Source: Mytilus trossulus
Lineage: Eukaryota
Direction of reading: 5' to 3'
DNA length: 64,000 nucleotides
Assembly (NCBI RefSeq): GCF_036588685.1
Contig: NC_086376.1
Coordinates: 20,088,001 to 20,152,000 of the forward strand
Position 1 is the first letter of the stretch. Every line of letters begins with the position of its first letter. Shown piece by piece: positions 33,801-59,393 of this stretch. The position numbers and the translations under genes are program-made. The notes beneath the pieces are model-generated. The model had not been told where the DNA came from and did no database searches. It saw only the letters and a list, made by a program, of their open reading frames with translations.

Positions 33801-33943
33801 CGGTAAAGTTGCAATAAAGAAAGTCATCAAAACCTCAACTGAGTTTGAAGCTTTTCTCAGCCTCAAACACGAAAACATCGTCGAAGCCATTGAAATCATC
33901 GAAGCCGAAGAATTTGCCTTCGTTTTGATGGAATTTGCTGAAT

Positions 33944-36900: not shown

Positions 36901-39132
36901 ACACATGTGGTCATTTCTGGTCAGTCATCTAAGATCTATTGTGGTAATCGGAAGATTTCATGCAGTGATGACAAATAAACAAGTGTTTGAAATTAATGAT
37001 TTGTCAATAAGACGTTAATTGGTTATTGATACTGAAGGAACTCAAAATCTGGTGTTTATCATGTTTATAGCTTGAAAATCAGAGCAGATAGCATTTTATC
37101 CTAACAATAGATATTAGAAAAATGATAAGTTCAATGTCATTATAGGCACCAATAATGATTTAAATCATCGTTATAAATATGATAGTGAATTCACAATAAA
37201 ACTATAAGAAGAAAAAAATATCTCCTTACTTTAAGCCAATGTAAAACATTTGGTCATAATGGAATTATTTTGAGATGTAAATACCTTTTCAATTTTTAAA
37301 AGGCTTTGTTTCATTCTTGGAAAAGTTTTCTTTTTCTTTTATGAAGTCAAGTTTACATGTACAAGTATGTAAATTTGCATTTCAAATATCTGAATTGAGA
37401 ACTATCATGTTTAAGAATTGATTTTCAAAATATGTTTACCTACCCTGATATACACTATCTTTTTCGGGTAATTTATACTGATAGCGTTTGACATTTTCAG
37501 CTGAACAAATTTATCAATTTTACATAACTTAAATTATTGTATGCTGGTTCATATTCTGGACGCCAATCTTTGCTCCTTTTTGGAAATTAGTATGGCGTTC
37601 ATTATCACTGAACTAGTATATATTTGTTTAGGGGCCAGCTGAAGGACGCCTCCGGGTGCCGGAATTTCTCGCTACATTGAAGACCTGTTGGTGACCTTCT
37701 GCTGTTGTTTTTTTATTTGGTCGGTGTGTTGTCTCTTTGACCCATTCCCCATTTCCATTCTCAATTTTATTAGAAAAATATATCAAACTTGATGATTTCT
37801 TTTTTTGTGATTCCAGTACACAAACAAAAATAATTAAAAGAAATGAAAATTTGTAAAAAAAATCAATTAATATTGTCATTTATGCCTTATTTATTCATAT
37901 ATCTCAACTGTGTTTGTAATATGCTTTAAATTACACTAAAATAGAAAACAAACTATCCAACTTTAGAATTCCCTTGTAAATGGTGTAGTAACAGTTTGTA
38001 ACGTGATCAAAACAGCAGACAGCTTGTGTTGCATTCCCAAATAGCAATAAGGTTTATTGACTGTTAAAGATGAGAAATAATCATTAATACCGTTTAAGAT
38101 GATATAAGCATACAAAAACACAAGCTCTTTAAGTTATGATCTTTTAAGTCAACCCCTCAACTTTAAAACAATGTCATGAATGAGTTGGTGTAAACAAGAA
38201 GATGTGGTAAGAGTATCAATGAGACTACTCACAACCCAAATCACAGCGTATACAAAGTTAACAATCATAGATCAAAAACATGGAGCCTTGGCTCACACCA
38301 AACAACAAGTTATAAAGGGCCCTAAAAATAACTGAAAACCCAACTGTTGAATCAATATGAAAAAACAGAAACCAGAAACACCTATGGACATGTTACTACA
38401 CCAACAAATGACAACCATTTAACAATGGCATCTGATCAAGGACAGGTGCATACAAAAAATGCAGCATTTTAAACATAATATAACAGGAGCCAATCTTCAC
38501 CTCCACTTGAGACTGTAATGTAACATTACATTATAAAAAGACCCACTATAAATTATCAATTGAAATGGATGAACTTGATCACAAAGAAATTTTAACAAGA
38601 ACTAGTATTAAGCATACAGCTGCCATTTATGCATACACTGAATGAATGCCAGTTTGATTTAATCATCTACATGTGAGCTGCGGAACCTTAGCTCTTAGGT
38701 CCTTATGTTATTTATCATTTGACCATAGATCTGCAAATAGTCAAGAAATAACATAAGGATCTAAGAGCTACGGTTCCTCAACTATCTACATGTATGACAC
38801 AATAATCAATATAAACAATATTAAAACTTATATGTTTCATGTAAATATTTAGTTGGAAAATTTCTGTTGGAAGTTAAATTTGCCTGGAAATTTTCTTTTG
38901 GAAGTTAAATTTGCCTGGAAATATTTAATTGAACCAGATATTTTCTTGGAAGTTTTAGTATTATTCTCATTTTTTTCCTGGAATAATTCTTACAAATTGT
39001 TGAAAAATTCTGGAAATTATTGCCAACTAAGAGAATATTTTCTGGAAAATCTGATATTTTTACAGATTTTTTATCTGGAATTCCTAAACCTTCTATAGGG
39101 GGGGGGGGTATGGATTATTTCTGGAATAGCCC
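33944..39132. mobile_element. 5.2-kb non-autonomous TIR transposon, PIF/Harbinger (PHIS)-like
   Basis: TIR GGGCTATTCCAGAAATAATCCATACCCCCCC-TATAGAAGG and inverse; 3-bp AAT TSD, verified against the empty site in sister units; subterminal TGGAA repeats. Confidence 0.88.
38671..38783. mobile_element. Palindromic mini-MITE inside the 5.2-kb element
   Basis: Inverted arms GGAACC.TAGCTCTTAG.TCCTTATGTTATTT; ATCTACATGT on both sides. Confidence 0.65.
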
Positions 39133-39273
39133 AATTCGGAGATGTTTTTGAATACATAATGAACAACGGTCTCATGTCCGTTGAAGCCACCCTCTCTCTT
39201 TTCTCTCAGGTTGTCAAAGCAATCGAATACTGCCACTCAATTGGAATCGCCCACAATGACATTAAATTAGAAA

Positions 39274-40856
39274 GGCACTGGCTACGATTACATGGAAATG
39301 TAACAATAATAAAAATATTATTGTTACATAGGAGACTAAATGCCGGAATGCAAAGGCGGATAAGGAACCGATTAATTACGAATGTAACAATAATTACTGA
39401 GGCTACGGTTACATGGCGTTATTGTTACATGAAAAACAGCAATCATTAAACTTAAATCTTGCCGGTATAGTTTTGTTGCCTTAATCTTGCATATGTACGA
39501 AATAATACTTGTAACAATGATAAATAATAAATATTATCGTTAACGAATGGTGTTTAAATTTTTTTTCTAACGTATAAATGGTTTTGGTGTTTTAAAGATA
39601 CTACTTAAGGATGTTCGCTGCTCAGTTTCATAATAAATAACTTTTCATAAAACTTGTATGTATTGGTAGGGAATAAATTTAGGGATCAAAATAGCAAAAT
39701 AAAATATAGGGGTCCATGTGCTTGTTTTCGAGATATTAGCCATTGGAATTTTGGCGGGAAAATGTTCTCTCTTGATTTTTCATAGCTTTATCATTGACCA
39801 GTTAAAGTTCTCAAATACTATTATAAAATAAATAAAATTTTATAAGACTTTAACAAATGACTTATAATTATACATGTAAAAGATTTATAAAAAGAAAAAT
39901 GGGGGTTCATGGGGATTTTTTTTTAATTATTCAAATGGATAAAACCAGAGGATTCCAAAAATCTGACAAAAATTCCGAAACATGACAAGCAGACATCCTT
40001 AAGATAAGTAGTGCCAAAGGCGAAAATATAGACCAATGGTTTGTTGTTGAGAACTCGGGCTGAGAAAAGTGTTCACTTTAAGTATTTTAAAACTGCACAT
40101 CTACTCGTATTACTGTCATTATACAATGCACAATGGATGAAGAGATTCTTGTGACCAATTTTGTTGTGGGTGAAAAATTTAAAACTTGGGATTCGTTTGA
40201 AACAAAACTGAAACAATATCAAGACACAAATTTCATTCAGCTATACAAACGCAGTTCTAAAAAAAATTAACGGACGGCAATGTGACCATACTGAAAGATG
40301 ACATAAAACTACATCACATGCTTCCAACCAAAATATTAGATGAGAACATAAACATTGCTCGAGTGAAAAAGTATTTCCACCGGAAGCATGGCAAACATTA
40401 AAGGTCGCATTATCATCAAAAAGGGATATCGCAGAATGGAACTGTACAGTATGTGATACGGACGTTCACAGTGCGGCATCACTGGTGTGTGATGGCTGCT
40501 TGGAGTGGTTTCACCAAAAATGTGTCGGACTCAGAAATGCTCCAAAAACCACTTACTGGATATGTAGAAAATGTCATTGCAAATAAATAATTAAAGAATT
40601 TATATTTAATAATTGTATGTATTGTAAATATAAAATAAATGTCTTTAATTTTTATTATCTAGTACATTTTAATAGACCCATTGTATATTGCTGTTTTTCA
40701 TGTAACAATAACGCCATGTAACCGTAGCCTCAGTAATTATTGTTACATTCGTAATTAATCGGTTCCTTACCCGACCTTGCATTCCGTCATTTAGTCTCCT
40801 ATGTAACAATAATATTTTTATTATTGTTACATTTCCATGTAACCGTAGCCAGTGCC
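39274..40856 (+). mobile_element. Internally deleted Mutator-like element (MULE) with transposase remnant and PHD finger
   Basis: ~170-bp TIRs starting GGCACTGGCTACG; 9-bp TSD AATTAGAAA; remnants MDEEIL..VGEKFKTWDSFETKLKQY (40133) and a C4HC3 motif (40437-40586). Confidence 0.9.
39609..39998. mobile_element. Kolobok-like MITE nested in the MULE
   Basis: TTAA|GGATGT...ACATCC|TTAA. Confidence 0.65.
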
Positions 40857-42396
40857 AATTAGAAAACGTCTTGTTGTCTAATGGTTGTGTCAAATTGGCC
40901 GACTTTGGATTTGCCAAGTCGTCCGATATTGTTGCCGAATCTGAAGAATTTTGTGGAACCCTCCTCCCATACGCTGCCCCAGAAGTTATTATGGGAATGG
41001 AACACAGCACCATGAAAGCAGATATGTGGAGTATGGGAGTTATGCTCTACGTCATGCTCTTCGGAGCTTTCCCATTCTCCGATAGTGACGCTACCTCTAT
41101 GGTCCAATCTCAAATCTCAAACACCCTCTTTTTCCCAGAAAACACTAACGAAACGTTAAAGTCTCTCATCTCCTCTATGCTTGAACCCTCTATTGAAAAA
41201 CGCGCTAATGCAAGCTCAGTCCTTCTTGCCTTGAGCCAGTTTTAAACACATAATTAAGCATCCTTGAAATCACAATATGTTGTGATTTCAAGGATGCCTT
41301 TTTTTTTGTCTGAGCTGTTGTTACGGTAAACCGTGCGGACCTTCTTTTAATGTTACTTGATCAAATACGGTTACGTATTGCGGTTACGGTAAACACATGT
41401 TAACGTTTGGTCTACATTCCTTCTTTAGGAATGGTACTTCTTGTTTTATCAATGAGACACTGCTAAGTGATTAAGACTATTTGTTAGTCTAGTTTACCGT
41501 ACCACCAAACAATCCTTTAACATTTCAGTTTCCCGTTTCTTTGTATTAAATGTTTGAGAAACAAGATAAGGATATTGATAGGTAAAGATTTCAGGGTTTC
41601 TGTCCATTGATATCGAAACATATCAGCCGCGAGCCAGAGAGTTTCACCTTGTGTCGAGCGACTGAACACCCATAATCTCTTATTCGTTCTTTCACTATGT
41701 TTGTGCTAGACAAACGTAGGCCTGACAACGTCTTGTGACGTCGCTGATAACTTCTCAAACACTATGACGTTGCTGATATTATCTGCTCAGAGCAAAGACA
41801 TTTCTAGGTAAACTAATTGTATGAGGGTACGGTAAACAAAGATGCAATACCAAAATAAAAGGACCCAGTATTATACTTTATAGTCCAGTTTACCGTATCA
41901 GCATACATTTTTTTTTGTCTTCTGTGGAATTCATTTCTAATCCGAAACTCATTGAATAAATTGGAAGCAAATATCCCCTTGAACATTCAGACAGTGATTT
42001 AATTTCGTTTAGTTTGTTGTGGTTAACCTTCAGCGTGCGAAGAAACGGTAAACTGCAGAGTATACTTATACTAGTTGAGCTACGGTAAACCTTTAATAGA
42101 ATTTTTATGGTTACGGTAAACATTGCAGTCACAAGCTATGGAAAAGTTTATGGTAACGGTAAACATATAAGAAAAATGACTTAGAAATGTTAACCGTTTG
42201 CAAGAGTAGGTACTATTAATGAAAAGGGGAGCTATTTCCAAAAATGTACTATTTAATTATGTAAGGAAGCATTTATTAAGACTTGTCTCCCCTTGAACAT
42301 CAAGACATGGAAGAGGCCATATCGGTCGATTTACTATATAAGGCTTGCATTTCACTATTTGGGATCTTTATCACATCACATCCACGCCAGTTTAAA

Positions 42397-43138
42397 ATGG
42401 ATTTTTTAATGAACAATGGACTCTCAAATGTTGTAGCTCTTACTGAAGAAGTTTTCTCTGCCTCTAGCGAAATATTCGGTAAAGTTGCAATAAAGAAAGT
42501 CATCAAAACCTCAACTGAGTTTGAAGCTTTTCTCAGCCTCAAACACGAAAACATCGTCGAAGCCATTGAAATCATCGAAGCCGAAGAATTTGCCTTCGTT
42601 TTGATGGAATTTGCTGAATTCGGAGATGTTTTTGAATACATAATGAACAACGAACGGTCTCGTGTCCGTTGAAGCCACCCTCTCTCTTTTCTCTCAGGTT
42701 GTCAAAGCAATCGAATACTGCCACTCAATTGGAATCGCCCACAATGACATTAAATTAGAAAACGTCTTGTTGTCTAATGGTTGTGTCAAATTGGCCGACT
42801 TTGGATTTGCCAAGTCGTCCGATATTGTTGCCGAATCTGAAGAATTTTGTGGAACCCTCCCATACGCTGCCCCAGAAGTTATTATGGGAATGGAACACAG
42901 CACCATGAAAGCCGATATGTGGAGTATGGGAGTTATGCTCTACGTCATGCTCTTCGGAGCTTTCCCATTCTCCGATAGTGACGCTACCTCTATGGTCCAA
43001 TCTCAAATCTCAAACACCCTCTTTTTCCCAGAAAACACTAACGAAACGTTAAAGTCTCTCATCTCCTCTATGCTTGAACCCTCTATTGAAAAACGCGCTA
43101 ATGCAAGCTCAGTCCTTCTTGCCTTGAGCCAGTTTTAA
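42397..43138 (+). pseudogene. Kinase copy 2, frameshifted
   Basis: 4-bp duplication (aacaacgaacggt, ~42650) splits the ORF. Confidence 0.85.
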
Positions 43139-44289
43139 ACACATAATTAAGCATCCTTGAAATCACAATATGTTGTGATTTCAAGGATGCCTTTTTTTTT
43201 GTCTGAGCTGTTGTTACGGTAAACCGTGCGGACCTTCTTTTAATGTTACTTGATCAAATACGGTTACGTATTGCGGTTACGGTAAACACATGTTAACGTT
43301 TGGTCTACATTCCTTCTTTAGGAATGGTACTTCTTGTTTTATCAATGAGACACTGCTAAGTGATTAAGACTATTTGTTAGTCTAGTTTACCGTACCACCA
43401 AACAATCCTTTAACATTTCAGTTTCCCGTTTCTTTGTATTAAATGTTTGAGAAACAAGATAAGGATATTGATAGGTAAAGATTTCAGGGTTTCTGTCCAT
43501 TGATATCGAAACATATCAGCCGCGAGCCAGAGAGTTTCACCTTGTGTCGAGCGACTGAACACCCATAATCTCTTATTTGTTCTTTCACTATGTTTGTGCT
43601 AGACAAACGTAGGCCTGACAACGTCTTGTGACGTCGCTGATAACTTCTCAAACACTATGACGTTGCTGATATTATCTGCTCAGAGCAAAGACATTTCTAG
43701 GTAAACTAATTGTATGAGGGTACGGTAAACAAAGATGCAATACCAAAATAAAAGGACCCAGTATTATACTTTATAGTCCAGTTTACCGTATCAGCATACA
43801 TTTTTTTTTGTCTTCTGTGGAATTCATTTCTAATCCGAAACTCATTGAATAAATTGGAAGCAAATATCCCCTTGAACATTCAGACAGTGATTTAATTTCG
43901 TTTAGTTTGTTGTGGTTAACCTTCAGCGTGCGAAGAAACGGTAAACTGCAGAGTATACTTATACTAGTTGAGCTACGGTAAACCTTTAATAGAATGTTTA
44001 TGGTTACGGTAAACATTGCAGTCACAAGCTATGGAAAAGTTTATGGTAACGGTAAACATATAAGAAAAATGACTTAGAAATGTTAACCGTTTGCAAGAGT
44101 AGGTACCATTAATGAAAAGGGGAGCTATTTCCAAAAATGTACTATTTAATTATGTAAGGAAGCATTTATTAAGACTTGTCTCCCCTTGAACATCAAGACA
44201 TGGAAGAGGCCATATCGGCCGATTTACTATATAAGGCTTGCATTTCACTATTTGGGATCTTTATCACATTACATCCACGCCAGTTTAAA

Positions 44290-45029
44290 ATGGATTTTTT
44301 AATGAACAGTGGACTCTCAAATGTTGTAGCTCTTACTGAAGAAGTTTTCTCTGCCTCTAGCGAAATATTCGGTAAAGTTGCAATAAAGAAAGTCATCAAA
44401 ACCTCAACTGAGTTTGAAGCTTTTCTCAGCCTCAAACACGAAAACATCGTCGAAGCCATTGAAATCATCGAAGCCGAAGAATTTGCCTTCGTTTTGATGG
44501 AATTTGCTGAATTCGGAGATGTTTTTGAATACATAATGAACAACGGTCTCATGTCCGTTGAAGCCACCCTCTCTCTTTTCTCTCAGGTTGTCAAAGCAAT
44601 CGAATACTGCCACTCAATTGGAATCGCCCACAATGACATTAAATTAGAAAACGTCTTGTTGTCTAATGGTTGTGTCAAATTGGCCGACTTTGGATTTGCC
44701 AAGTCGTCCGATATTGTTGCCGAATCTGAAGAATTTTGTGGAACACTCCCATACGCTGCCCCAGAAGTTATTATGGGAATGGAACACAGCACCATGAAAG
44801 CCGATATGTGGAGTATGGGAGTTATGCTCTACGTCATGCTCTTCGGAGCTTTCCCATTCTCCGATAGTGACGCTACCTCTATGGTCCAATCTCAAATCTC
44901 AAACACCCTCTTTTTCCCAGAAAACACTAACGAAACGTTTTAAAGTCTCTCATCTCCTCTATGCTTGAACCCTCTATTGAAAAACGCGCTAATGCAAGCT
45001 CAGTCCTTCTTGCCTTGAGCCAGTTTTAA
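44290..45029 (+). pseudogene. Kinase copy 3, C-terminally truncated by +2 T frameshift
   Basis: aacgttttaaag vs aacgttaaag; stop at 44943 removes subdomain XI (could be a sequencing error). Confidence 0.75.
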
Positions 45030-46179
45030 ACACATAATTAAGCATCCTTGAAATCACAATATGTTGTGATTTCAAGGATGCCTTTTTTTTGTCTGAGCTG
45101 TTGTTACGGTAAACCGTGCGGACCTTCTTTTAATGTTACTTGATCAAATACGGTTACGTATTGCGGTTACGGTAAACACATGTTAACGTTTGGTCTACAT
45201 TCCTTCTTTAGGAATGGTACTTCTTGTTTTATCAATGAGACACTGCTAAGTGATTAAGACTATTTGTTAGTCTAGTTTACCGTACCACCAAACAATCCTT
45301 TAACATTTCAGTTTCCCGTTTCTTTGTATTAAATGTTTGAGAAACAAGATAAGGATATTGATAGGTAAAGATTTCAGGGTTTCTGTCCATTGATATCGAA
45401 ACATATCAGCCGCGAGCCAGAGAGTTTCACCTCGTGTCGAGCGACTGAACACCCATAATCTCTTATTCGTTCTTTCACTATGTTTGTGCTAGACAAACGT
45501 AGGCCTGACAACGTCTTGTGACGTCGCTGATAACTTATCAAACACTATGACGTTGCTGATATTATCTGCTCAGAGCAAAGACATTTCTAGGTAAACTAAT
45601 TGTATGAGGGTACGGTAAACAAAGATGCAATACCAAAATAAAAGGACCCAGTATTATACTTTATAGTCCAGTTTACCGTATCAGCATACAGTTTTTTTTG
45701 TCTTCTGTGGAATTCATTTCTAATCCGAAACTCATTGAATAAATTGGAAGCAAATATCCCCTTGAACATTCAGACAGTGATTTAATTTCGTTTAGTTTGT
45801 TGTGGTTAACCTTCAGCGTGCGAAGAAACGGTAAACTGCAGAGTATACTTATACTAGTTGAGCTACGGTAAACCTTTAATAGAATTTTTATGGTTACGGT
45901 AAACATTGCAGTCACAAGCTATGGAAAAGTTTATGGTAACGGTAAACATATAAGAAAAATGACTTAGAAATGTTAACCGTTTGCAAGAGTAGGTACCATT
46001 AATGAAAAGGGGAGCTATTTCCAAAAATGTACTATTTAATTATGTAAGGAAGCATTTATTAAGACTTGTCTCCCCTTGAACATCAAGACATGGAAGAGGC
46101 CATATCGGCCGATTTACTATATAAGGCTTGCATTTCACTATTTGGGATCTTTATCACATCACATCCACGCCAGTTTAAA

Positions 46180-46917
46180 ATGCATTTTTTAATGAACAGT
46201 GGACTCTCAAATGTTGTAGCTCTTACTGAAGAAGTTTTCTCTGCCTCTAGCGAAATATTCGGTAAAGTTGCAATAAAGAAAGTCATCAAAACCTCAACTG
46301 AGTTTGAAGCTTTTCTCAGCCTCAAACACGAAAACATCGTCGAAGCCATTGAAATCATCGAAGCCGAAGAATTTGCCTTCGTTTTGATGGAATTTGCTGA
46401 ATTCGGAGATGTTTTTGAATACATAATGAACAACGGTCTCATGTCCGTTGAAGCCACCCTCTCTCTTTTCTCTCAGGTTGTCAAAGCAATCGAATACTGC
46501 CACTCAATTGGAATCGCCCACAATGACATTAAATTAGAAAACGTCTTGTTGTCTAATGGTTGTGTCAAATTGGCCGACTTTGGATTTGCCAAGTCGTCCG
46601 ATATTGTTGCCGAATCTGAAGAATTTTGTGGAACCCTCCCATACGCTGCCCCAGAAGTTATTATGGGAATGGAACACAGCACCATGAAAGCCGATATGTG
46701 GAGTATGGGAGTTATGCTCTACGTCATGCTCTTCGGAGCTTTCCCATTCTCCGATAGTGACGCTACCTCTATGGTCCAATCTCAAATCTCAAACACCCTC
46801 TTTTTCCCAGAAAACACTAACGAAACGTTAAAGTCTCTCATCTCCTCTATGCTTGAACCCTCTATTGAAAAACGCGCTAATGCAAGCTCAGTCCTTCTTG
46901 CCTTGAGCCAGTTTTAA
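46180..46917 (+). CDS. Intronless Ser/Thr kinase, CAMK group, TSSK-like, 245 aa (copy 4, D2H)
   Basis: VAIK, HNDIKLEN, DFG, FCGTLPYAAPE, DMWSMGV; ATG downstream of a TATA box. Confidence 0.85.
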   Translation: MHFLMNSGLSNVVALTEEVFSASSEIFGKVAIKKVIKTSTEFEAFLSLKHENIVEAIEIIEAEEFAFVLMEFAEFGDVFEYIMNNGLMSVEATLSLFSQVVKAIEYCHSIGIAHNDIKLENVLLSNGCVKLADFGFAKSSDIVAESEEFCGTLPYAAPEVIMGMEHSTMKADMWSMGVMLYVMLFGAFPFSDSDATSMVQSQISNTLFFPENTNETLKSLISSMLEPSIEKRANASSVLLALSQF

Positions 46918-46929
46918 ACACATAATTAA

Positions 46930-46979
46930 GCATCCTTGAAATCACAATATGTTGTGATTTCAAGGATGCCTTTTTTTTT
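46930..46979 (+). terminator. 18-bp perfect hairpin + T9 after the kinase stop (representative; one per spacer); function unproven
   Basis: GCATCCTTGAAATCACAA-tatg-TTGTGATTTCAAGGATGC-c-TTTTTTTTT, starting 12 nt after TAA. Confidence 0.55.
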
Positions 46980-48006
46980 GTCTGAGCTGTTGTTACGGTA
47001 AACCGTGCGGACCTTCTTTTAATGTTACTTGATCAAATACGGTTACGTATTGCGGTTACGGTAAACACATGTTAACGTTTGGTCTACATTCCTTCTTTAG
47101 GAATGGTACTTCTTGTTTTATCAATGAGACACTGCTAAGTGATTAAGACTATTTGTTAGTCTAGTTTACCGTACCACCAAACAATCCTTTAACATTTCAG
47201 TTTCCCGTTTCTTTGTATTAAATGTTTGAGAAACAAGATAAGGATATTGATAGGTAAAGATTTCAGGGTTTCTGTCCATTGATATCGAAACATATCAGCC
47301 GCGAGCCAGAGAGTTTCACCTTGTGTCGAGCGACTGAACACCCATAATCTCTTATTTGTTCTTTCACTATGTTTGTGCTAGACAAACGTAGGCCTGACAA
47401 CGTCTTGTGACGTCGCTGATAACTTCTCAAACACTATGACGTTGCTGATATTATCTGCTCAGAGCAAAGACATTTCTAGGTAAACTAATTGTATGAGGGT
47501 ACGGTAAACAAAGATGCAATACCAAAATAAAAGGACCCAGTATTATACTTTATAGTCCAGTTTACCGTATCAGCATACAGTTTTTTTTGTCTTCTGTGGA
47601 ATTCATTTCTAATCCGAAACTCATTGAATAAATTGGAAGCAAATATCCCCTTGAACATTCAGACAGTGATTTAATTTCGTTTAGTTTGTTGTGGTTAACC
47701 TTCAGCGTGCGAAGAAACGGTAAACTGCAGAGTATACTTATACTAGTTGAGCTACGGTAAACCTTTAATAGAATTTTTATGGTTACGGTAAACATTGCAG
47801 TCACAAGCTATGGAAAAGTTTATGGTAACGGTAAACATATAAGAAAAATGACTTAGAAATGTTAACCGTTTGCAAGAGTAGGTACCATTAATGAAAAGGG
47901 GAGCTATTTCCAAAAATGTACTATTTAATTATGTAAGGAAGCATTTATTAAGACTTGTCTCCCCTTGAACATCAAGACATGGAAGAGGCCATATCGGCCG
48001 ATTTAC

Positions 48007-48013
48007 TATATAA
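48007..48013 (+). promoter_or_regulatory. TATA box of the kinase unit (representative; present in all 12)
   Basis: cTATATAAgg ~62 bp upstream of ATG, Inr-like TCACATC ~35 bp downstream of it. Confidence 0.7.
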
Positions 48014-48068
48014 GGCTTGCATTTCACTATTTGGGATCTTTATCACATCACATCCACGCCAGTTTAAA

Positions 48069-48806
48069 ATGGATTTTTTAATGAACAGTGGACTCTCAAA
48101 TGTTGTAGCTCTTACTGAAGAAGTTTTCTCTGCCTCTAGCGAAATATTCGGTAAAGTTGCAATAAAGAAAGTCATCAAAACCTCAACTGAGTTTGAAGCT
48201 TTTCTCAGCCTCAAACACGAAAACATCGTCGAAGCCATTGAAATCATCGAAGCCGAAGAATTTGCCTTCGTTTTGATGGAATTTGCTGAATTCGGAGATG
48301 TTTTTGAATACATAATGAACAACGGTCTCATGTCCGTTGAAGCCACCCTCTCTCTTTTCTCTCAGGTTGTCAAAGCAATCGAATACTGCCACTCAATTGG
48401 AATCGCCCACAATGACATTAAATTAGAAAACGTCTTGTTGTCTAATGGTTGTGTCAAATTGGCCGACTTTGGATTTGCCAAGTCGTCCGATATTGTTGCC
48501 GAATCTGAAGAATTTTGTGGAACCCTCCCATACGCTGCCCCAGAAGTTATTATGGGAATGGAACACAGCACCATGAAAGCCGATATGTGGAGTATGGGAG
48601 TTATGCTCTACGTCATGCTCTTCGGAGCTTTCCCATTCTCCGATAGTGACGCTACCTCTATGGTCCAATCTCAAATCTCAAACACCCTCTTTTTCCCAGA
48701 AAACACTAACGAAACGTTAAAGTCTCTCATCTCCTCTATGCTTGAACCCTCTATTGAAAAACGCGCTAATGCAAGCTCAGTCCTTCTTGCCTTGAGCCAG
48801 TTTTAA
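48069..48806 (+). CDS. Intronless TSSK-like kinase copy 5
   Basis: Intact 245-aa ORF, aaaATGg context. Confidence 0.88.
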   Translation: MDFLMNSGLSNVVALTEEVFSASSEIFGKVAIKKVIKTSTEFEAFLSLKHENIVEAIEIIEAEEFAFVLMEFAEFGDVFEYIMNNGLMSVEATLSLFSQVVKAIEYCHSIGIAHNDIKLENVLLSNGCVKLADFGFAKSSDIVAESEEFCGTLPYAAPEVIMGMEHSTMKADMWSMGVMLYVMLFGAFPFSDSDATSMVQSQISNTLFFPENTNETLKSLISSMLEPSIEKRANASSVLLALSQF

Positions 48807-49949
48807 ACACATAATTAAGCATCCTTGAAATCACAATATGTTGTGATTTCAAGGATGCCTTTTTTTTTGTCTGAGCTGTTGTTACGGTAAACCGTGCGGA
48901 CCTTCTTTTAATGTTACTTGATCAAATACGGTTACGTATTGCGGTTACGGTAAACACATGTTAACGTTTGGTCTACATTCCTTCTTTAGGAATGGTACTT
49001 CTTGTTTTATCAATGAGACACTGCTAAGTGATTAAGACTATTTGTTAGTCTAGTTTACCGTACCACCAAACAATCCTTTAACATTTCAGTTTCCCGTTTC
49101 TTTGTATTAAATGTTTGAGAAACAAGATAAGGATATTGATAGGTAAAGATTTCAGGGTTTCTGTCCATTGATATCGAAACATATCAGCCGCGAGCCAGAG
49201 AGTTTCACCTTGTGTCGAGCGACTGAACACCCATAATCTCTTATTCGTTCTTTCACTATGTTTGTGCTAGACAAACGTAGGCCTGACAACGTCTTGTGAC
49301 GTCGCTGATAACTTCTCAAACACTATGACGTTGCTGATATTATCTGCTCAGAGCAAAGACATTTCTAGGTAAACTAATTGTATGAGGGTACGGTAAACAA
49401 AGATGCAATACCAAAATAAAAGGACCCACTTTATAGTCCAGTTTACCGTATCAGCATACAGTTTTTTTTGTCTTCTGTGGAATTCATTTCTAATCCGAAA
49501 CTCATTGAATAAATTGGAAGCAAATATCCCCTTGAACATTCAGACAGTGATTTAATTTCGTTTAGTTTGTTGTGGTTAACCTTCAGCGTGCGAAGAAACG
49601 GTAAACTGCAGAGTATACTTATACTAGTTGAGCTACGGTAAACCTTTAATAGAATTTTTATGGTTACGGTAAACATTGCAGTCACAAGCTATGGAAAAGT
49701 TTATGGTAACGGTAAACATATAAGAAAAATGACTTAGAAATGTTAACCGTTTGCCAGAGTAGGTACCATTAATGAAAAGGGGGGCTATTTCCAAAAATGT
49801 ACTATTTAATTATGTAAGGAAGCATTTATTAAGACTTGTCTCCCCTTGAACATCAAGACATGGAAGAGGCCATATCGGCCGATTTACTATATAAGGCTTG
49901 CATTTCACTATTTGGGATCTTTATCACATCACATCCACGCCAGTTTAAA

Positions 49950-50687
49950 ATGGATTTTTTAATGAACAGTGGACTCTCAAATGTTGTAGCTCTTACTGAA
50001 GAAGTTTTCTCTGCCTCTAGCGAAATATTCGGTAAAGTTGCAATAAAGAAAGTCATCAAAACCTCAACTGAGTTTGAAGCTTTTCTCAGCCTCAAACACG
50101 AAAACATCGTCGAAGCCATTGAAATCATCGAAGCCGAAGAATTTGCCTTCGTTTTGATGGAATTTGCTGAATTCGGAGATGTTTTTGAATACATAATGAA
50201 CAACGGTCTCATGTCCGTTGAAGCCACCCTCTCTCTTTTCTCTCAGGTTGTCAAAGCAATCGAATACTGCCACTCAATTGGAATCGCCCACAATGACATT
50301 AAATTAGAAAACGTCTTGTTGTCTAATGGTTGTGTCAAATTGGCCGACTTTGGATTTGCCAAGTCGTCCGATATTGTTGCCGAATCTGAAGAATTTTGTG
50401 GAACCCTCCCATACGCTGCCCCAGAAGTTATTATGGGAATGGAACACAGCACCATGAAAGCCGATATGTGGAGTATGGGAGTTATGCTCTACGTCATGCT
50501 CTTCGGAGCTTTCCCATTCTCCGATAGTGACGCTACCTCTATGGTCCAATCTCAAATCTCAAACACCCTCTTTTTCCCAGAAAACACTAACGAAACGTTA
50601 AAGTCTCTCATCTCCTCTATGCTTGAACCCTCTATTGAAAAACGCGCTAATGCAAGCTCAGTCCTTCTTGCCTTGAGCCAGTTTTAA
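49950..50687 (+). CDS. Intronless TSSK-like kinase copy 6
   Basis: Intact 245-aa ORF. Confidence 0.88.
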   Translation: MDFLMNSGLSNVVALTEEVFSASSEIFGKVAIKKVIKTSTEFEAFLSLKHENIVEAIEIIEAEEFAFVLMEFAEFGDVFEYIMNNGLMSVEATLSLFSQVVKAIEYCHSIGIAHNDIKLENVLLSNGCVKLADFGFAKSSDIVAESEEFCGTLPYAAPEVIMGMEHSTMKADMWSMGVMLYVMLFGAFPFSDSDATSMVQSQISNTLFFPENTNETLKSLISSMLEPSIEKRANASSVLLALSQF

Positions 50688-51838
50688 ACACATAATTAAG
50701 CATCCTTGAAATCACAATATGTTGTGATTTCAAGGATGCCTTTTTTTTTGTCTGAGCTGTTGTTACGGTAAACCGTGCGGACCTTCTTTTAATGTTACTT
50801 GATCAAATACGGTTACGTATTGCGGTTACGGTAAACACATGTTAACGTGTGGTCTACATTCCTTCTTTAGGAATGGTACTTCTTGTTTTATCAATGAGAC
50901 ACTGCTAAGTGATTAAGACTATTTGTTAGTCTAGTTTACCGTACCACCAAACAATCCTTTAACATTTCAGTTTCCCGTTTCTTTGTATTAAATGTTTGAG
51001 AAACAAGATAAGGATATTGATAGGTAAAGATTTCAGGGTTTCTGTCCATTGATATCGAAACATATCAGCCGCGAGCCAGAGAGTTTCACCTTGTGTCGAG
51101 CGACTGAACACCCATAATCTCTTATTCGTTCTTTCACTATGTTTGTGCTAGACAAACGTAGGCCTGACAACGTCTTGTGACGTCGCTGATAACTTCTCAA
51201 ACACTATGACGTTGCTGATATTATCTGCTCAGAGCAAAGACATTTCTAGGTAAACTAATTGTATGAGGGTACGGTAAACAAAGATGCAATACCAAAATAA
51301 AAGGACCCAGTATTATACTTTATAGCCCAGTTTACCGTATCAGCATACAGTTTTTTTTGTCTTCTGTGGAATTCATGTCTAATCCGAAACTCATTGAATA
51401 AATTGGAAGCAAATATCCCCTTGAACATTCAGACAGTGATTTAATTTCGTTTAGTTTGTTGTGGTTAACCTTCAGCGTGCGAAGAAACGGTAAACTGCAG
51501 AGTATACTTATACTAGTTGAGCTACGGTAAACCTTTAATAGAATTTTTATGGTTACGGTAAACATTGCAGTCACAAGCTATGGAAAAGTTTATGGTAACG
51601 GTAAACATATAAGAAAAATGACTTAGAAATGTTAACCGTTTGCAAGAGTAGGTACCATTAATGAAAAGGGGAGCTATTTCCAAAAATGTACTATTTAATT
51701 ATGTAAGGAAGCATTTATTAAGACTTGTCTCCCCTTGAACATCAAGACATGGAAGAGGCCATATCGGCCGATTTACTATATAAGGCTTGCATTTCACTAT
51801 TTGGGATCTTTATCACATCACATCCACGCCAGTTTAAA

Positions 51839-52576
51839 ATGGATTTTTTAATGAACAGTGGACTCTCAAATGTTGTAGCTCTTACTGAAGAAGTTTTCTC
51901 TGCCTCTAGCGAAATATTCGGTAAAGTTGCAATAAAGAAAGTCATCAAAACCTCAACTGAGTTTGAAGCTTTTCTCAGCCTCAAACACGAAAACATCGTC
52001 GAAGCCATTGAAATCATCGAAGCCGAAGAATTTGCCTTCGTTTTGATGGAATTTGCTGAATTCGGAGATGTTTTTGAATACATAATGAACAACGGTCTCA
52101 TGTCCGTTGAAGCCACCCTCTCTCTTTTCTCTCAGGTTGTCAAAGCAATCGAATACTGCCACTCAATTGGAATCGCCCACAATGACATTAAATTAGAAAA
52201 CGTCTTGTTGTCTAATGGTTGTGTCAAATTGGCCGACTTTGGATTTGCCAAGTCGTCCGATATTGTTGCCGAATCTGAAGAATTTTGTGGAACCCTCCCA
52301 TACGCTGCCCCAGAAGTTATTATGGGAATGGAACACAGCACCATGAAAGCCGATATGTGGAGTATGGGAGTTATGCTCTACGTCATGCTCTTCGGAGCTT
52401 TCCCATTCTCCGATAGTGACGCTACCTCTATGGTCCAATCTCAAATCTCAAACACCCTCTTTTTCCCAGAAAACACTAACGAAACGTTAAAGTCTCTCAT
52501 CTCCTCTATGCTTGAACCCTCTATTGAAAAACGCGCTAATGCAAGCTCAGTCCTTCTTGCCTTGAGCCAGTTTTAA
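51839..52576 (+). CDS. Intronless TSSK-like kinase copy 7
   Basis: Intact 245-aa ORF. Confidence 0.88.
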   Translation: MDFLMNSGLSNVVALTEEVFSASSEIFGKVAIKKVIKTSTEFEAFLSLKHENIVEAIEIIEAEEFAFVLMEFAEFGDVFEYIMNNGLMSVEATLSLFSQVVKAIEYCHSIGIAHNDIKLENVLLSNGCVKLADFGFAKSSDIVAESEEFCGTLPYAAPEVIMGMEHSTMKADMWSMGVMLYVMLFGAFPFSDSDATSMVQSQISNTLFFPENTNETLKSLISSMLEPSIEKRANASSVLLALSQF

Positions 52577-53727
52577 ACACATAATTAAGCATCCTTGAAA
52601 TCACAATATGTTGTGATTTCAAGGATGCCTTTTTTTTTGTCTGAGCTGTTGTTACGGTAAACCGTGCGGACCTTCTTTTAATGTTACTTGATCAAATACG
52701 GTTACGTATTGCGGTTACGGTAAACACATGTTAACGTTTGGTCTACATTCCTTCTTTAGGAATGGTACTTCTTGTTTTATCAATGAGACACTGCTAAGTG
52801 ATTAAGACTATTTGTTAGTCTAGTTTACCGTACCACCAAACAATCCTTTAACATTTCAGTTTCCCGTTTCTTTGTATTAAATGTTTGAGAAACAAGATAA
52901 GGATATTGATAGGTAAAGATTTCAGGGTTTCTGTCCATTGATATCGAAACATATCAGCCGCGAGCCAGAGAGTTTCACCTTGTGTCGAGCGACTGAACAC
53001 CCATAATCTCTTATTCGTTCTTTCACTATGTTTGTGCTAGACAAACGTAGGCCTGACAACGTCTTGTGACGTCGCTGATAACTTCTCAAACACTATGACG
53101 TTGCTGATATTATCTGCTCAGAGCAAAGACATTTCTAGGTAAACTAATTGTATGAGGGTACGGTAAACAAAGATGCAATACCAAAATAAAAGGACCCAGT
53201 ATTATACTTTATAGTCCAGTTTACCGTATCAGCATACAGTTTTTTTTGTCTTCTGTGGAATTCATTTCTAATCCGAAACTCATTGAATAAATTGGAAGCA
53301 AATATCCCCTTGAACATTCAGACAGTGATTTAATTTCGTTTAGTTTGTTGTGGTTAACCTTCAGCGTGCGAAGAAACGGTAAACTGCAGAGTATACTTAT
53401 ACTAGTTGAGCTACGGTAAACCTTTAATAGAATTTTTATGGTTACGGTAAACATTGCAGTCACAAGCTATGGAAAAGTTTATGGTAACGGTAAACATATA
53501 AGAAAAATGACTTAGAAATGTTAACCGTTTGCCAGAGTAGGTACCATTAATGAAAAGGGGGGCTATTTCCAAAAATGTACTATTTAATTATGTAAGGAAG
53601 CATTTATTAAGACTTGTCTCCCCTTGAACATCAAGACATGGAAGAGGCCATATCGGCCGATTTACTATATAAGGCTTGCATTTCACTATTTGGGATCTTT
53701 ATCACATCACATCCACGCCAGTTTAAA

Positions 53728-54465
53728 ATGGATTTTTTAATGAACAGTGGACTCTCAAATGTTGTAGCTCTTACTGAAGAAGTTTTCTCTGCCTCTAGCG
53801 AAATATTCGGTAAAGTTGCAATAAAGAAAGTCATCAAAACCTCAACTGAGTTTGAAGCTTTTCTCAGCCTCAAACACGAAAACATCGTCGAAGCCATTGA
53901 AATCATCGAAGCCGAAGAATTTGCCTTCGTTTTGATGGAATTTGCTGAATTCGGAGATGTTTTTGAATACATAATGAACAACGGTCTCATGTCCGTTGAA
54001 GCCACCCTCTCTCTTTTCTCTCAGGTTGTCAAAGCAATCGAATACTGCCACTCAATTGGAATCGCCCACAATGACATTAAATTAGAAAACGTCTTGTTGT
54101 CTAATGGTTGTGTCAAATTGGCCGACTTTGGATTTGCCAAGTCGTCCGATATTGTTGCCGAATCTGAAGAATTTTGTGGAACCCTCCCATACGCTGCCCC
54201 AGAAGTTATTATGAGAATGGAACACAGCACCATGAAAGCCGATATGTGGAGTATGGGAGTTATGCTCTACGTCATGCTCTTCGGAGCTTTCCCATTCTCC
54301 GATAGTGACGCTACCTCTATGGTCCAATCTCAAATCTCAAACACCCTCTTTTTCCCAGAAAACACTAACGAAACGTTAAAGTCTCTCATCTCCTCTATGC
54401 TTGAACCCTCTATTGAAAAACGCGCTAATGCAAGCTCAGTCCTTCTTGCCTTGAGCCAGTTTTAA
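53728..54465 (+). CDS. Intronless TSSK-like kinase copy 8 (G>R after APE)
   Basis: Intact ORF; EVIMRMEH instead of EVIMGMEH. Confidence 0.86.
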   Translation: MDFLMNSGLSNVVALTEEVFSASSEIFGKVAIKKVIKTSTEFEAFLSLKHENIVEAIEIIEAEEFAFVLMEFAEFGDVFEYIMNNGLMSVEATLSLFSQVVKAIEYCHSIGIAHNDIKLENVLLSNGCVKLADFGFAKSSDIVAESEEFCGTLPYAAPEVIMRMEHSTMKADMWSMGVMLYVMLFGAFPFSDSDATSMVQSQISNTLFFPENTNETLKSLISSMLEPSIEKRANASSVLLALSQF

Positions 54466-55616
54466 ACACATAATTAAGCATCCTTGAAATCACAATATGT
54501 TGTGATTTCAAGGATGCCTTTTTTTTTGTCTGAGCTGTTGTTACGGTAAACCGTGCGGACCTTCTTTTAATGTTACTTGATCAAATACGGTTACGTATTG
54601 CGGTTACGGTAAACACATGTTAACGTTTGGTCTACATTCCTTCTTTAGGAATGGTACTTCTTGTTTTATCAATGAGACACTGCTAAGTGATTAAGACTAT
54701 TTGTTAGTCTAGTTTACCGTACCACCAAACAATCCTTTAACATTTCAGTTTCCCGTTTCTTTGTATTAAATGTTTGAGAAACAAGATAAGGATATTGATA
54801 GGTAAAGATTTCAGGGTTTCTGTCCATTGATATCGAAACATATCAGCCGCGAGCCAGAGAGTTTCACCTTGTGTCGAGCGACTGAACACCCATAATCTCT
54901 TATTCGTTCTTTCACTATGTTTGTGCTAGACAAACGTAGGCCTGACAACGTCTTGTGACGTCGCTGATAACTTCTCAAACACTATGACGTTGCTGATATT
55001 ATCTGCTCAGAGCAAAGACATTTCTAGGTAAACTAATTGTATGAGGGTACGGTAAACAAAGATGCAATACCAAAATAAAAGGACCCAGTATTATACTTTA
55101 TAGTCCAGTTTACCGTATCAGCATACAGTTTTTTTTGTCTTCTGTGGAATTCATTTCTAATCCGAAACTCATTGAATAAATTGGAAGCAAATATCCCCTT
55201 GAACATTCAGACAGTGATTTAATTTCGTTTAGTTTGTTGTGGTTAACCTTCAGCGTGCGAAGAAACGGTAAACTGCAGAGTATACTTATACTAGTTGAGC
55301 TACGGTAAACCTTTAATAGAATTTTTATGGTTACGGTAAACATTGCAGTCACAAGCTATGGAAAAGTTTATGGTAACGGTAAACATATAAGAAAAATGAC
55401 TTAGAAATGTTAACCGTTTGCAAGAGTAGGTACCATTAATGAAAAGGGGAGCTATTTCCAAAAATGTACTATTTAATTATGTAAGGAAGCATTTATTAAG
55501 ACTTGTCTCCCCTTGAACATCAAGACATGGAAGAGGCCATATCGGCCGATTTACTATATAAGGCTTGCATTTCACTATTTGGGATCTTTATCACATCACA
55601 TCCACGCCAGTTTAAA

Positions 55617-56354
55617 ATGGATTTTTTAATGAACAGTGGACTCTCAAATGTTGTAGCTCTTACTGAAGAAGTTTTCTCTGCCTCTAGCGAAATATTCGGT
55701 AAAGTTGCAATAAAGAAAGTCATCAAAACCTCAACTGAGTTTGAAGCTTTTCTCAGCCTCAAACACGAAAACATCGTCGAAGCCATTGAAATCATTGAAG
55801 CCGAAGAATTTGCCTTCGTTTTGATGGAATTTGCTGAATTCGGAGATGTTTTTGAATACATAATGAACAACGGTCTCATGTCCGTTGAAGCCACCCTCTC
55901 TCTTTTCTCTCAGGTTGTCAAAGCAATCGAATACTGCCACTCAATTGGAATCGCCCACAATGACATTAAATTAGAAAACGTCTTGTTGTCTAATGGTTGT
56001 GTCAAATTGGCCGACTTTGGATTTGCCAAGTCGTCCGATATTGTTGCCGAATCTGAAGAATTTTGTGGAACCCTCCCATACGCTGCCCCAGAAGTTATTA
56101 TGGGAATGGAACACAGCACCATGAAAGCCGATATGTGGAGTATGGGAGTAATGCTCTACGTCATGCTCTTCGGAGCTTTCCCATTCTCCGATAGTGACGC
56201 TACCTCTATGGTCCAATCTCAAATCTCAAACACCCTCTTTTTCCCAGAAAACACTAACGAAACGTTAAAGTCTCTCATCTCCTCTATGCTTGAACCCTCT
56301 ATTGAAAAACGCGCTAATGCAAGCTCAGTCCTTCTTGCCTTGAGCCAGTTTTAA
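55617..56354 (+). CDS. Intronless TSSK-like kinase copy 9
   Basis: Intact ORF; two synonymous changes seen. Confidence 0.88.
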   Translation: MDFLMNSGLSNVVALTEEVFSASSEIFGKVAIKKVIKTSTEFEAFLSLKHENIVEAIEIIEAEEFAFVLMEFAEFGDVFEYIMNNGLMSVEATLSLFSQVVKAIEYCHSIGIAHNDIKLENVLLSNGCVKLADFGFAKSSDIVAESEEFCGTLPYAAPEVIMGMEHSTMKADMWSMGVMLYVMLFGAFPFSDSDATSMVQSQISNTLFFPENTNETLKSLISSMLEPSIEKRANASSVLLALSQF

Positions 56355-57505
56355 ACACATAATTAAGCATCCTTGAAATCACAATATGTTGTGATTTCAA
56401 GGATGCCTTTTTTTTTGTCTGAGCTGTTGTTACGGTAAACCGTGCGGACCTTCTTTTAATGTTACTTGATCAAATACGGTTACGTATTGCGGTTACGGTA
56501 AACACATGTTAACGTTTGGTCTACATTCCTTCTTTAGGAATGGTACTTCTTGTTTTATCAATGAGACACTGCTAAGTGATTAAGACTATTTGTTAGTCTA
56601 GTTTACCGTACCACCAAACAATCCTTTAACATTTCAGTTTCCCGTTTCTTTGTATTAAATGTTTGAGAAACAAGATAAGGATATTGATAGGTAAAGATTT
56701 CAGGGTTTCTGTCCATTGATATCGAAACATATCAGCCGCGAGCCAGAGAGTTTCACCTTGTGTCGAGCGACTGAACACCCATAATCTCTTATTCGTTCTT
56801 TCACTATGTTTGTGCTAGACAAACGTAGGCCTGACAACGTCTTGTGACGTCGCTGATAACTTCTCAAACACTATGACGTTGCTGATATTATCTGCTCAGA
56901 GCAAAGACATTTCTAGGTAAACTAATTGTATGAGGGTACGGTAAACAAAGATGCAATACCAAAATAAAAGGACCCAGTATTATACTTTATAGTCCAGTTT
57001 ACCGTATCAGCATACAGTTTTTTTTGTCTTCTGTGGAATTCATTTCTAATCCGAAACTCATTGAATAAATTGGAAGCAAATATCCCCTTGAACATTCAGA
57101 CAGTGATTTAATTTCGTTTAGTTTGTTGTGGTTAACCTTCAGCGTGCGAAGAAACGGTAAACTGCAGAGTATACTTATACTAGTTGAGCTACGGTAAACC
57201 TTTAATAGAATTTTTATGGTTACGGTAAACATTGCAGTCACAAGCTATGGAAAAGTTTATGGTAACGGTAAACATATAAGAAAAATGACTTAGAAATGTT
57301 AACCGTTTGCAAGAGTAGGTACCATTAATGAAAAGGGGAGCTATTTCCAAAAATGTACTATTTAATTATGTAAGGAAGCATTTATTAAGACTTGTCTCCC
57401 CTTGAACATCAAGACATGGAAGAGGCCATATCGGCCGATTTACTATATAAGGCTTGCATTTCACTATTTGGGATCTTTATCACATCACATCCACGCCAGT
57501 TTAAA

Positions 57506-58243
57506 ATGGATTTTTTAATGAACAGTGGACTCTCAAATGTTGTAGCTCTTACTGAAGAAGTTTTCTCTGCCTCTAGCGAAATATTCGGTAAAGTTGCAAT
57601 AAAGAAAGTCATCAAAACCTCAACTGAGTTTGAAGCTTTTCTCAGCCTCAAACACGAAAACATCGTCGAAGCCATTGAAATCATCGAAGCCGAAGAATTT
57701 GCCTTCGTTTTGATGGAATTTGCTGAATTCGGAGATGTTTTTGAATACATAATGAACAACGGTCTCATGTCCGTTGAAGCCACCCTCTCTCTTTTCTCTC
57801 AGGTTGTCAAAGCAATCGAATACTGCCACTCAATTGGAATCGCCCACAATGACATTAAATTAGAAAACGTCTTGTTGTCTAATGGTTGTGTCAAATTGGC
57901 CGACTTTGGATTTGCCAAGTCGTCCGATATTGTTGCCGAATCTGAAGAATTTTGTGGAACCCTCCCATACGCTGCCCCAGAAGTTATTATGGGAATGGAA
58001 CACAGCACCATGAAAGCCGATATGTGGAGTATGGGAGTTATGCTCTACGTCATGCTCTTCGGAGCTTTCCCATTCTCCGATAGTGACGCTACCTCTATGG
58101 TCCAATCTCAAATCTCAAACACCCTCTTTTTCCCAGAAAACACTAACGAAACGTTAAAGTCTCTCATCTCCTCTATGCTTGAACCCTCTATTGAAAAACG
58201 CGCTAATGCAAGCTCAGTCCTTCTTGCCTTGAGCCAGTTTTAA
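57506..58243 (+). CDS. Intronless TSSK-like kinase copy 10
   Basis: Intact 245-aa ORF. Confidence 0.88.
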   Translation: MDFLMNSGLSNVVALTEEVFSASSEIFGKVAIKKVIKTSTEFEAFLSLKHENIVEAIEIIEAEEFAFVLMEFAEFGDVFEYIMNNGLMSVEATLSLFSQVVKAIEYCHSIGIAHNDIKLENVLLSNGCVKLADFGFAKSSDIVAESEEFCGTLPYAAPEVIMGMEHSTMKADMWSMGVMLYVMLFGAFPFSDSDATSMVQSQISNTLFFPENTNETLKSLISSMLEPSIEKRANASSVLLALSQF

Positions 58244-59393
58244 ACACATAATTAAGCATCCTTGAAATCACAATATGTTGTGATTTCAAGGATGCCTTTT
58301 TTTTGTCTGAGCTGTTGTTACGGTAAACCGTGCGGACCTTCTTTTAATGTTACTTGATCAAATACGGTTACGTATTGCGGTTACGGTAAACACATGTTAA
58401 CGTTTGGTCTACATTCCTTCTTTAGGAATGGTACTTCTTGTTTTATCAATGAGACACTGCTAAGTGATTAAGACTATTTGTTAGTCTAGTTTACCGTACC
58501 ACCAAACAATCCTTTAACATTTCAGTTTCCCGTTTCTTTGTATTAAATGTTTGAGAAACAAGATAAGGATATTGATAGGTAAAGATTTCAGGGTTTCTGT
58601 CCATTGATATCGAAACATATCAGCCGCGAGCCAGAGAGTTTCACCTTGTGTCGAGCGACTGAACACCCATAATCTCTTATTCGTTCTTTCACTATGTTTG
58701 TGCTAGACAAACGTAGGCCTGACAACGTCTTGTGACGTCGCTGATAACTTCTCAAACACTATGACGTTGCTGATATTATCTGCTCAGAGCAAAGACATTT
58801 CTAGGTAAACTAATTGTATGAGGGTACGGTAAACAAAGATGCAATACCAAAATAAAAGGACCCAGTATTATACTTTATAGTCCAGTTTACCGTATCAGCA
58901 TACATTTTTTTTTGTCTTCTGTGGAATTCATTTCTAATCCGAAACTCATTGAATAAATTGGAAGCAAATATCCCCTTGAACATTCAGACAGTGATTTAAT
59001 TTCGTTTAGTTTGTTGTGGTTAACCTTCAGCGTGCGAAGAAACGGTAAACTGCAGAGTATACTTATACTAGTTGAGCTACGGTAAACCTTTAATAGAATT
59101 TTTATGGTTACGGTAAACATTGCAGTCACAAGCTATGGAAAAGTTTATGGTAACGGTAAACATATAAGAAAAATGACTTAGAAATGTTAACCGTTTGCAA
59201 GAGTAGGTACCATTAATGAAAAGGGGAGCTATTTCCAAAAATGTACTATTTAATTATGTAAGGAAGCATTTATGAAGACTTGTCTCCCCTTGAACATCAA
59301 GACATGGAAGAGGCCATATCGGCCGATTTACTATATAAGGCTTGCATTTCACTATTTGGGATCTTTATCACATCACATCCACGCCAGTTTAAA

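Follow-up and report, generated by a model that had tools for sequence, protein, structure and literature searches.

We have analyzed a tandemly repeated kinase gene of the mussel Mytilus trossulus in nearly every copy of which a long hairpin, followed by a run of 8-11 T's, stands just behind the stop codon. The hairpin is real and conserved, and it probably acts as RNA at the 3' end of this mobile tandem gene; together with its U-tract it makes a signal that is unusual among protein-coding genes of animals. To our knowledge, cleavage and polyadenylation is the accepted way for such genes to end their mRNAs, with histones as the exception, and a translated, non-adenylated mRNA outside the histones has, as far as we know, a low prior in animals. 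The broadest interpretation, which we regard as rather unlikely, is that of a circle-propagated 'coding satellite' of mussels: a unit of 1.7-2.2 kb that multiplies and moves in the form of tandem arrays and carries a divergent kinase under purifying selection, the mRNA of which is ended by a bacterial-style hairpin-U terminator without a poly(A) signal. If true, this would be a class of translated animal mRNA beyond the histones that bypasses cleavage and polyadenylation. Release of Pol II at T-tracts was shown recently, in the available portions of two reports mostly for non-coding, promoter-proximal or already cleaved RNA (PMC11610936, PMC7615648). A conserved hairpin-U signal on a selected coding gene, present in about 55-60 copies, offers a natural and cheap test of this route for animal mRNA. 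The gene family itself, mobile, ampliconic and TSSK-like, and paralleled by clusters in ark clam and abalone, raises the prospect of sperm function or selfish spread.

The repeat unit, its hairpin and the three arrays

The window (the whole stretch of 64,000 nucleotides that was analyzed) contains one of three head-to-tail arrays, which lie on three chromosomes of the mussel genome and are referred to here as C4 (the array in the window), C3 and C1. The window unit of 1889 bp consists of a TATA box, an intronless kinase ORF, the hairpin with its tract and a motif-bearing spacer (Table 1); the window units differ from the reference unit at 3-13 aligned positions. An in-frame upstream ATG at 46090 precedes the TATA box. 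CpG is not depleted in the unit (0.87-0.95, versus 0.50 in the flank).

Table 1. Features of the array in the window, with positions counted from the first base of the window
Feature	Position	Strand	Remark
Tandem array of the 1889-bp unit	32510..61897	+	12 units with a hairpin, then a final partial ORF; from ORF nt 679 to nt 634
5.2-kb insertion with terminal inverted repeats, in first ORF copy	33943..39131 (approximate)		
1.6-kb insertion with terminal inverted repeats and 9-bp target duplication, in first ORF copy	39274..40856 (approximate)		
TATATAA box	46118..46124	+	C1 unit has one at the matching place
Intronless ORF of acidic TSSK-like kinase, 245 aa	46180..46917	+	Starts at second ATG
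TTTAAA hexamer overlapping stop codon	46913..46918	+	In all three arrays; missed in the first-pass annotation
Perfect 18-bp stem with TATG loop	46930..46969	+	Inverted-repeat check, RNA fold
T9 tract	46971..46979	+	One base past stem, with GTC behind it; no T run on the sense strand of the unit is longer
Nine ACGGTAAAC motifs in spacer	46995..47836	7 on +, 2 on -	0.008 expected per spacer
Captured piece of dispersed host repeat in spacer of C4 lineage	49166..49197	+	127 matches within 3 mismatches, 12 of them in the window array
Shortened hairpin copy, 9-bp stem left	60144..60164	+	Central 19-nt deletion

The first-pass annotation had described a perfect 18-bp stem with a 4-nt loop and T8-9, located 12 nt after the TAA in each spacer. 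An inverted-repeat check and RNA folding confirmed the structure and its distance from the stop codon (46915-46917); a single C at 46970 separates stem from tract, and seven of the 18 stem pairs are GC. The fold of 46900-47000 has an energy of -36.8 kcal/mol (z -6.69), none of 200 shuffles was equally stable, and hairpin plus tract pass a simple terminator scan. The word 'each' needs a small correction: the hairpin occupies 12 positions in the window, 11 of them intact, and the one at 60144 has lost 19 nt. The T run is nine long at 10 of the 12 positions and eight long at the other two. These 12 hairpins are copies of one amplified element and are counted as one observation. Across 142.5 kb of DNA, most of it outside the arrays, a perfect 12-bp arm pair followed by T7 occurs once, in the first unit of the C1 array. 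The annotation's statement that the hairpin does not match the 6-bp histone stem-loop was borne out by an Rfam scan, which returned 12 weak matches, none at gathering score, with the histone stem-loop not among them.

The nearest ATTAAA and AATAAA had been placed about 300 and 610 bp downstream, and in C4 they indeed lie 300 and 609 nt after the stop. The positions of these hexamers are not conserved (609, 710 and 300 nt in C4 versus 228 and 556 nt in C1). TTTAAA is a minor variant of the poly(A) hexamer, and the copy that overlaps the stop codon is a possible weak poly(A) signal.

The spacer motif ACGGTAAAC is found nine times in the C4 unit spacer and eight times in each of the C3 and C1 units; there is none inside the ORF and none in the 32.5 kb to the left of the array. 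The sites form a homotypic cluster of 8-9 per unit, the sequence being kept while positions turn over between lineages, and this cluster may be enhancer- or origin-like. A block at 49152-49197 that is shared with other contigs was considered as the common region of a multipartite virus and rejected, as the block comes from a dispersed host repeat. Folding of the unit gave no rod (36 hairpin loops, 60% paired), and no ribozyme family in Rfam matched it.

The C3 array gave about 30 ORF matches, with 97% identity, and its hairpin is the same as that of C4. The C1 array has 16 units of 1701-1727 bp with 90% protein identity. In the 100 of 108 rows listed, the hairpin-arm pattern occurs 54 times (16 in C1, 27 in C3 and 11 in C4), which equals the sum of the three arrays, so that by count none of these 54 is a solitary copy outside them. 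No other gene family with a like architecture was found in the genome among the best 150 of 261-274 protein candidates, the best 40 of 147 spacer candidates and the pattern matches listed, up to 100 rows each; motif patterns likewise yielded no additional family above control. A stem with T7 follows none of 144 distant kinase ORFs, and the two host TSSK genes that are single-copy lack such a hairpin and do have A[AT]TAAA downstream. Decayed and rearranged pieces of the unit, 78-90% identical, lie beside the arrays at C3 (16306800-16308000) and C1 (26029700-26030300), pointing to an apparently older residence of the unit at these loci; the C3 piece carries no hairpin arm. Hairpin-damaged copies also persist within the arrays.

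The hairpin is present in the diverged C1 homologues, where it begins 7-8 nt past the stop and has 34 of 36 arm bases in common with C4, a degree of retention with a chance probability of about 0.011 at 21% neutral change. The outer stem of C1 has 24 pairs, 21 Watson-Crick and three G-U with none of any other kind, and T9-11 follows directly behind it in all 16 copies. The C1 loop is longer and different in sequence, and the tract has stayed beside the stem. The C4 and C1 spacers match at about 30-60% in a forced alignment: past the tract, GTC and the first motif they are unalignable up to the last 390 bp before the ATG. The C1 hairpin folds at -41.1 kcal/mol in the sense direction versus -29.8 kcal/mol in the antisense, G-U pairs being A-C on the other strand; the chance of all three being G-U is estimated at roughly 0.03-0.13. 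Two lineages with a readable hairpin underlie this conservation, and the two-sided compensatory changes that the annotation proposed to seek in diverged copies did not appear in them (0 of 35 pairs).

The kinase and the probable spread of its arrays

The kinase ORF matches the Pfam family Pkinase (E 4e-51). The catalytic Lys, HxD-K-N, DFG and APE are retained; the glycine-rich ATP loop is absent in all 17 aligned rows, and H[NSCG]D is found where HRD is expected. The pI is 4.4, versus 8.5 and 9.2 for the two host TSSKs, and the predicted structure is poor (pLDDT 49). Proteins nearly identical to the unit kinase carry TSSK-like (TSSK3-like) annotations in four species of Mytilus, and several of these proteins have consecutive accessions. 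We consider the kinase to be under selection because dN/dS between the C4 and C1 ORFs is 0.175 (dS 0.26); the distinct ORF changes within arrays are 13 nonsynonymous and 5 synonymous. The ORF is intact in 42 of 47 whole units.

A profile search against 1.84 billion representatives placed the whole close family in one cluster. Relatives of 69-81% identity lie mostly on contigs of 0.8-2.2 kb, although three share one 17-kb contig, and such unit-sized contigs are as expected for collapsed arrays or circles. Among the next single-domain matches are short TSSK-like genes of Tegillarca and Haliotis that stand in consecutive runs. A quick tree gave the unit kinases their own clade (97), apart from canonical TSSKs, in an open node (SH-aLRT 87) which it shares with short kinases of molluscs and with one long viral branch; the Tegillarca and Haliotis run genes group loosely with the mussel clade. 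The arraying of short TSSK-like genes suggests a wider mollusc habit. Short TSSK-like kinases in gene runs or on contigs of 1-2 kb are P0123 (Tegillarca), P0177 (Haliotis asinina), P0127, P0250, P0024 and P0221. No close relative was found in viral contigs (71 loci, best match 36%) or prokaryote genomes (42 loci), and the best match in JGI metagenomes was 40% among the best 80 of 508 matches, in a scan that missed at least one member, the family protein P0070 being from JGI. A viral link through the motif pair was discarded: 14 viral loci carry the pair and none encodes a related kinase. The accessible text of three papers on mollusc TSSKs (PMC8042308, PMC3144882, PMC4883820) deals with canonical or testis-expressed TSSKs and makes no mention of such arrays. 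In the wider literature covered, which mostly excludes subscription papers, we came across no account of arrays, motif or hairpin.

The arrays start and end at unit nt 679/634 (C4), 263/1790 (C3) and 67/1286 (C1), and none of these six ends falls at the hairpin or tract. The C4 array falls 44 bp short of an integral number of units. At its left end it interrupts a dispersed repeat; five other copies of this repeat, 95-98% identical to the interrupted one, all run on past the junction. The right flank of the array is unrelated, and there is no target duplication. The C3 and C1 arrays, with their other phases, have scrambled, decayed edges. We see no carrier transposon, because the arrays have no adjacent flank in common. 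The C4 array has the look of a circular multimer that was broken once and inserted recently by end-joining, as judged from one case in which the near-integer length has an estimated chance of about 1 in 20. Reinsertion of tandem genes by way of circular multimers is a known route, as described in the available part of PMC3225859. The unit probably spreads by way of extrachromosomal circles of several units, which reinsert where the DNA breaks; the hairpin lies off the insertion ends and is not needed for this process.

Several other elements accompany the window array. Two DNA transposon-like insertions disrupt the first ORF copy (Table 1). An LTR-like repeat starts at 62039, 142 bp past the array, and recurs 12 kb further on (C4:20162023); the pair is probably one LTR element. 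An IMS-domain exon (Pfam PF00817) at 13914-14486, with the array just downstream, and a frame of 483 aa at 25451-26902 that bears two zinc-finger-like CxxC...H...C motifs look like exons of a Y-family DNA polymerase, which we take to be kappa-like.

How the kinase RNA may end

Four of 19 listed sequencing runs were examined, all as contigs, which show no ends, strand or tails. X12 is the sole run recorded as RNA; X1, X4 and X5 are RNA by guess and may be DNA or read-through RNA. The X12 contigs have a depth of 14.4-16.6 over 48026-48821 versus 2.9-4.3 in the spacer, a step of about fourfold that comes from one run and is weak. The high depth starts 19 nt past the TATA start of that unit and ends at the third hairpin base, a CA at the 5' foot, 14 nt past TTTAAA. 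No A tail was seen among the X12 loose ends, though contigs drop tips. This stop comes from one study and one place, and we put it below the bar for even a weak hint. The contigs of X1, X4 and X5 cross the hairpin and cover the whole unit: the depth in X1 (8.4 versus 6.2-7.5) has no step at the hairpin, and X4 and X5 gave single cyclic whole-unit contigs of 1919 and 1774 nt. Word shares of 0.39-0.50 had been taken as gene-only cover in X4 and X5; this was dropped, as both proved to be whole-unit with sequence differences. Flat cover in certain libraries, together with a step over the gene body in a metatranscriptome, would be the picture expected of non-adenylated RNA on top of background DNA. 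The X12 end also fits cleavage at the CA or poor reverse transcription through a strong hairpin. An X12 contig variant at 48830-48840 has 2 nt of the loop region missing and still has a 17-bp stem with a 4-nt loop.

We think it probable that the hairpin is an RNA 3'-end signal. The best reading of how it works, which we favor tentatively and with some doubt, is hairpin-assisted release of Pol II at the U-tract. Pol II would start just past the TATA box and meet the T-tract about 830 nt later, in what would be the early zone of reported Pol II T-tract termination. There it would pause and be released with the help of the hairpin, so that hairpin and tract would form the 3' end of the kinase RNA and the hairpin would then shield the free end; stopping at the tract would also keep transcription off the motif-rich promoter of the next unit. 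We prefer release at the U-tract to cleavage and polyadenylation because the adjacency of stem and tract is kept, the gene is short and Pol II termination at T-tracts is reported, in the available text, near start sites and after some short genes (PMC11610936, PMC7615648). The evidence for it consists of the C1 conservation, the sense-strand G-U pairs, the unconserved hexamers and, weakly, the X12 step. Counting against it are the three runs that cross the hairpin, the lack of compensatory change and the persistence of damaged hairpins; moreover, in the parts of these papers available, Pol II release at a T-tract needs no hairpin (PMC7615648) and mature elongation complexes resist T-tracts (PMC11610936). 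The annotation's suggestion of a non-canonical mRNA 3'-end signal is partly supported, by the retained hairpin and tract, the sense G-U pairs and the unconserved hexamers, with the X12 drop as a weak addition; two-sided compensation was not among the changes seen.

The chief rival, a rather unlikely course in our estimate, is that the RNA ends at this place by cleavage and polyadenylation at or beside the hairpin, with TTTAAA as a weak hexamer, the T/GT-rich tract as downstream element and the stem bringing both close; we include here a Mimiviridae-like cut within the stem by an enzyme of the RNase III type. A structured stretch that separates the hexamer from the cut site has mammalian precedent, ordinary poly(A) translation would be retained, the hexamer is common to all three arrays, and the X12 high-depth contig ends exactly at a CA at a fitting distance from it. 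Against this, TTTAAA is perhaps mere Phe-stop coding, the loose ends have no A tail (with the reservation that contigs drop tips), a tract abutting the stem is not required, and the unit is without viral processing genes. The sense-strand G-U pairs suit any RNA structure, including a 3' UTR element (for stability, localization, translational storage or as a small-RNA source) in transcripts extending to poly(A) sites further downstream or through the array. The X1, X4 and X5 contigs that cross the hairpin agree with such an element, and the C1 hairpin is pre-miRNA sized (58 nt), although the C4 stem is short for the stem-length requirement of Microprocessor; with the X12 depth step, the unconserved downstream hexamers and the Rfam scores, which fall far short of gathering, all opposed to it, we hold this distinctly unlikely.

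A signal acting in DNA, namely a Helentron-type 3' end, a rolling-circle origin or a cruciform for making or copying circles, with ACGGTAAAC as iteron-like sites, would suit arrays that resemble concatemers, the many motifs flanking the hairpin, the cyclic whole-unit contigs of X4 and X5 and the relatives on unit-sized contigs. We give it little credence, since the array ends avoid hairpin and tract, subterminal repeats are absent, all 54 pattern matches among those listed lie within the three arrays, the loop, where a nick site is expected, is what differs, and the G-T pairs favor one RNA strand. Of the forms proposed in the first-pass annotation, the Helentron-like 3' end is contradicted by the stem of 18-24 bp, array ends elsewhere, the lack of shared flanks and of solitary copies among the matches listed, and a longest subterminal inverted-repeat match (60 nt past the tract versus 90 nt before the hairpin) of 7 nt in C4 and 6 nt in C1; the canonical Helitron CTRR end about 11 bp past the palindrome is absent as well, the stem being followed by C, T9 and GTC. 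CRESS-type rolling-circle origins carry a conserved nick-site motif in the loop, and the rolling-circle signal fails on the loops of C4 and C1, which differ wholly, as well as on the array ends. The palindrome could also be neutral, copied as the unit amplified and held perfect through repair between its arms. Such neutrality would agree with within-array variation that looks unselected (13 nonsynonymous and 5 synonymous changes, damaged hairpins), but arm sequence, tract and position were kept while the adjoining spacer turned over, and repair would erase the G-T pairs; this we find hardly probable.

Comparison with known systems

Histone clusters are also made of short intronless units in homogenized arrays at several loci; the mussel hairpin is not the histone stem-loop. 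The arrays are similarly like the eccDNA-forming tandem arrays of 5S rDNA and satellites, in the available account, in their short, homogenized, intronless units at several loci and in a near-integer insertion without target duplication, and differ in that the unit encodes a divergent kinase (PMC3225859). The nearest named relatives of that kinase are the TSSKs, of which the canonical members, in the accessible part of the source, are single-copy, have a basic pI of 8.5-9.8 and bear the glycine-rich loop, whereas the unit kinase is multicopy, acidic and loopless (PMC8042308). Helentrons, HINE and DINE-1 elements (PMC4067079; oyster arrays, PMC7492417) are alike in having a palindrome beside T's and in forming bivalve tandem repeats; as far as the excerpts describe them, they have subterminal inverted repeats of 12-15 bp and a palindrome of 5-10 bp near a T-flanked 3' terminus (PMC4067079).

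Closer parallels are found among RNA-ending systems. Pol II T-tract termination has in common with the mussel case a short gene whose coding strand bears a T-tract no more than about 1 kb from its likely start. In the text available, the transcripts ended in this way are snRNAs, promoter-proximal ones or those past a poly(A) site, the mapped products are exosome-sensitive and a hairpin is not required, whereas the mussel tract would define the end of a coding mRNA and comes with a conserved hairpin (PMC11610936, PMC7615648). The Mimiviridae hairpin rule, which the annotation had invoked, likewise has a long palindrome at the gene end and no conserved AATAAA; according to the part of the source available it requires cytoplasmic enzymes of the virus, an RNase III-like nuclease and a poly(A) polymerase, and the mussel unit has one ORF and none of these (PMC4402537). 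The Mimiviridae feature of a poly(A) site inside the hairpin may be set beside the X12 contig, which stops at the stem foot without a visible tail (contigs drop tips). This rule applies by analogy only, through a 3' hairpin without conserved AATAAA; the kinase has no close viral relative among the 71 loci (best match 36%). The bacterial intrinsic (Rho-independent) terminator also has a stem and then a U-tract of about 7-9 just past the stop codon; the mussel hairpin differs in belonging to an animal nuclear gene with a TATA box and in its longer (18-24 bp), less GC-rich stem, and no close bacterial relative of the gene was found among 42 prokaryote loci. By analogy, then, the mussel hairpin resembles the bacterial terminator and parallels the Mimiviridae rule, and is a member of neither.
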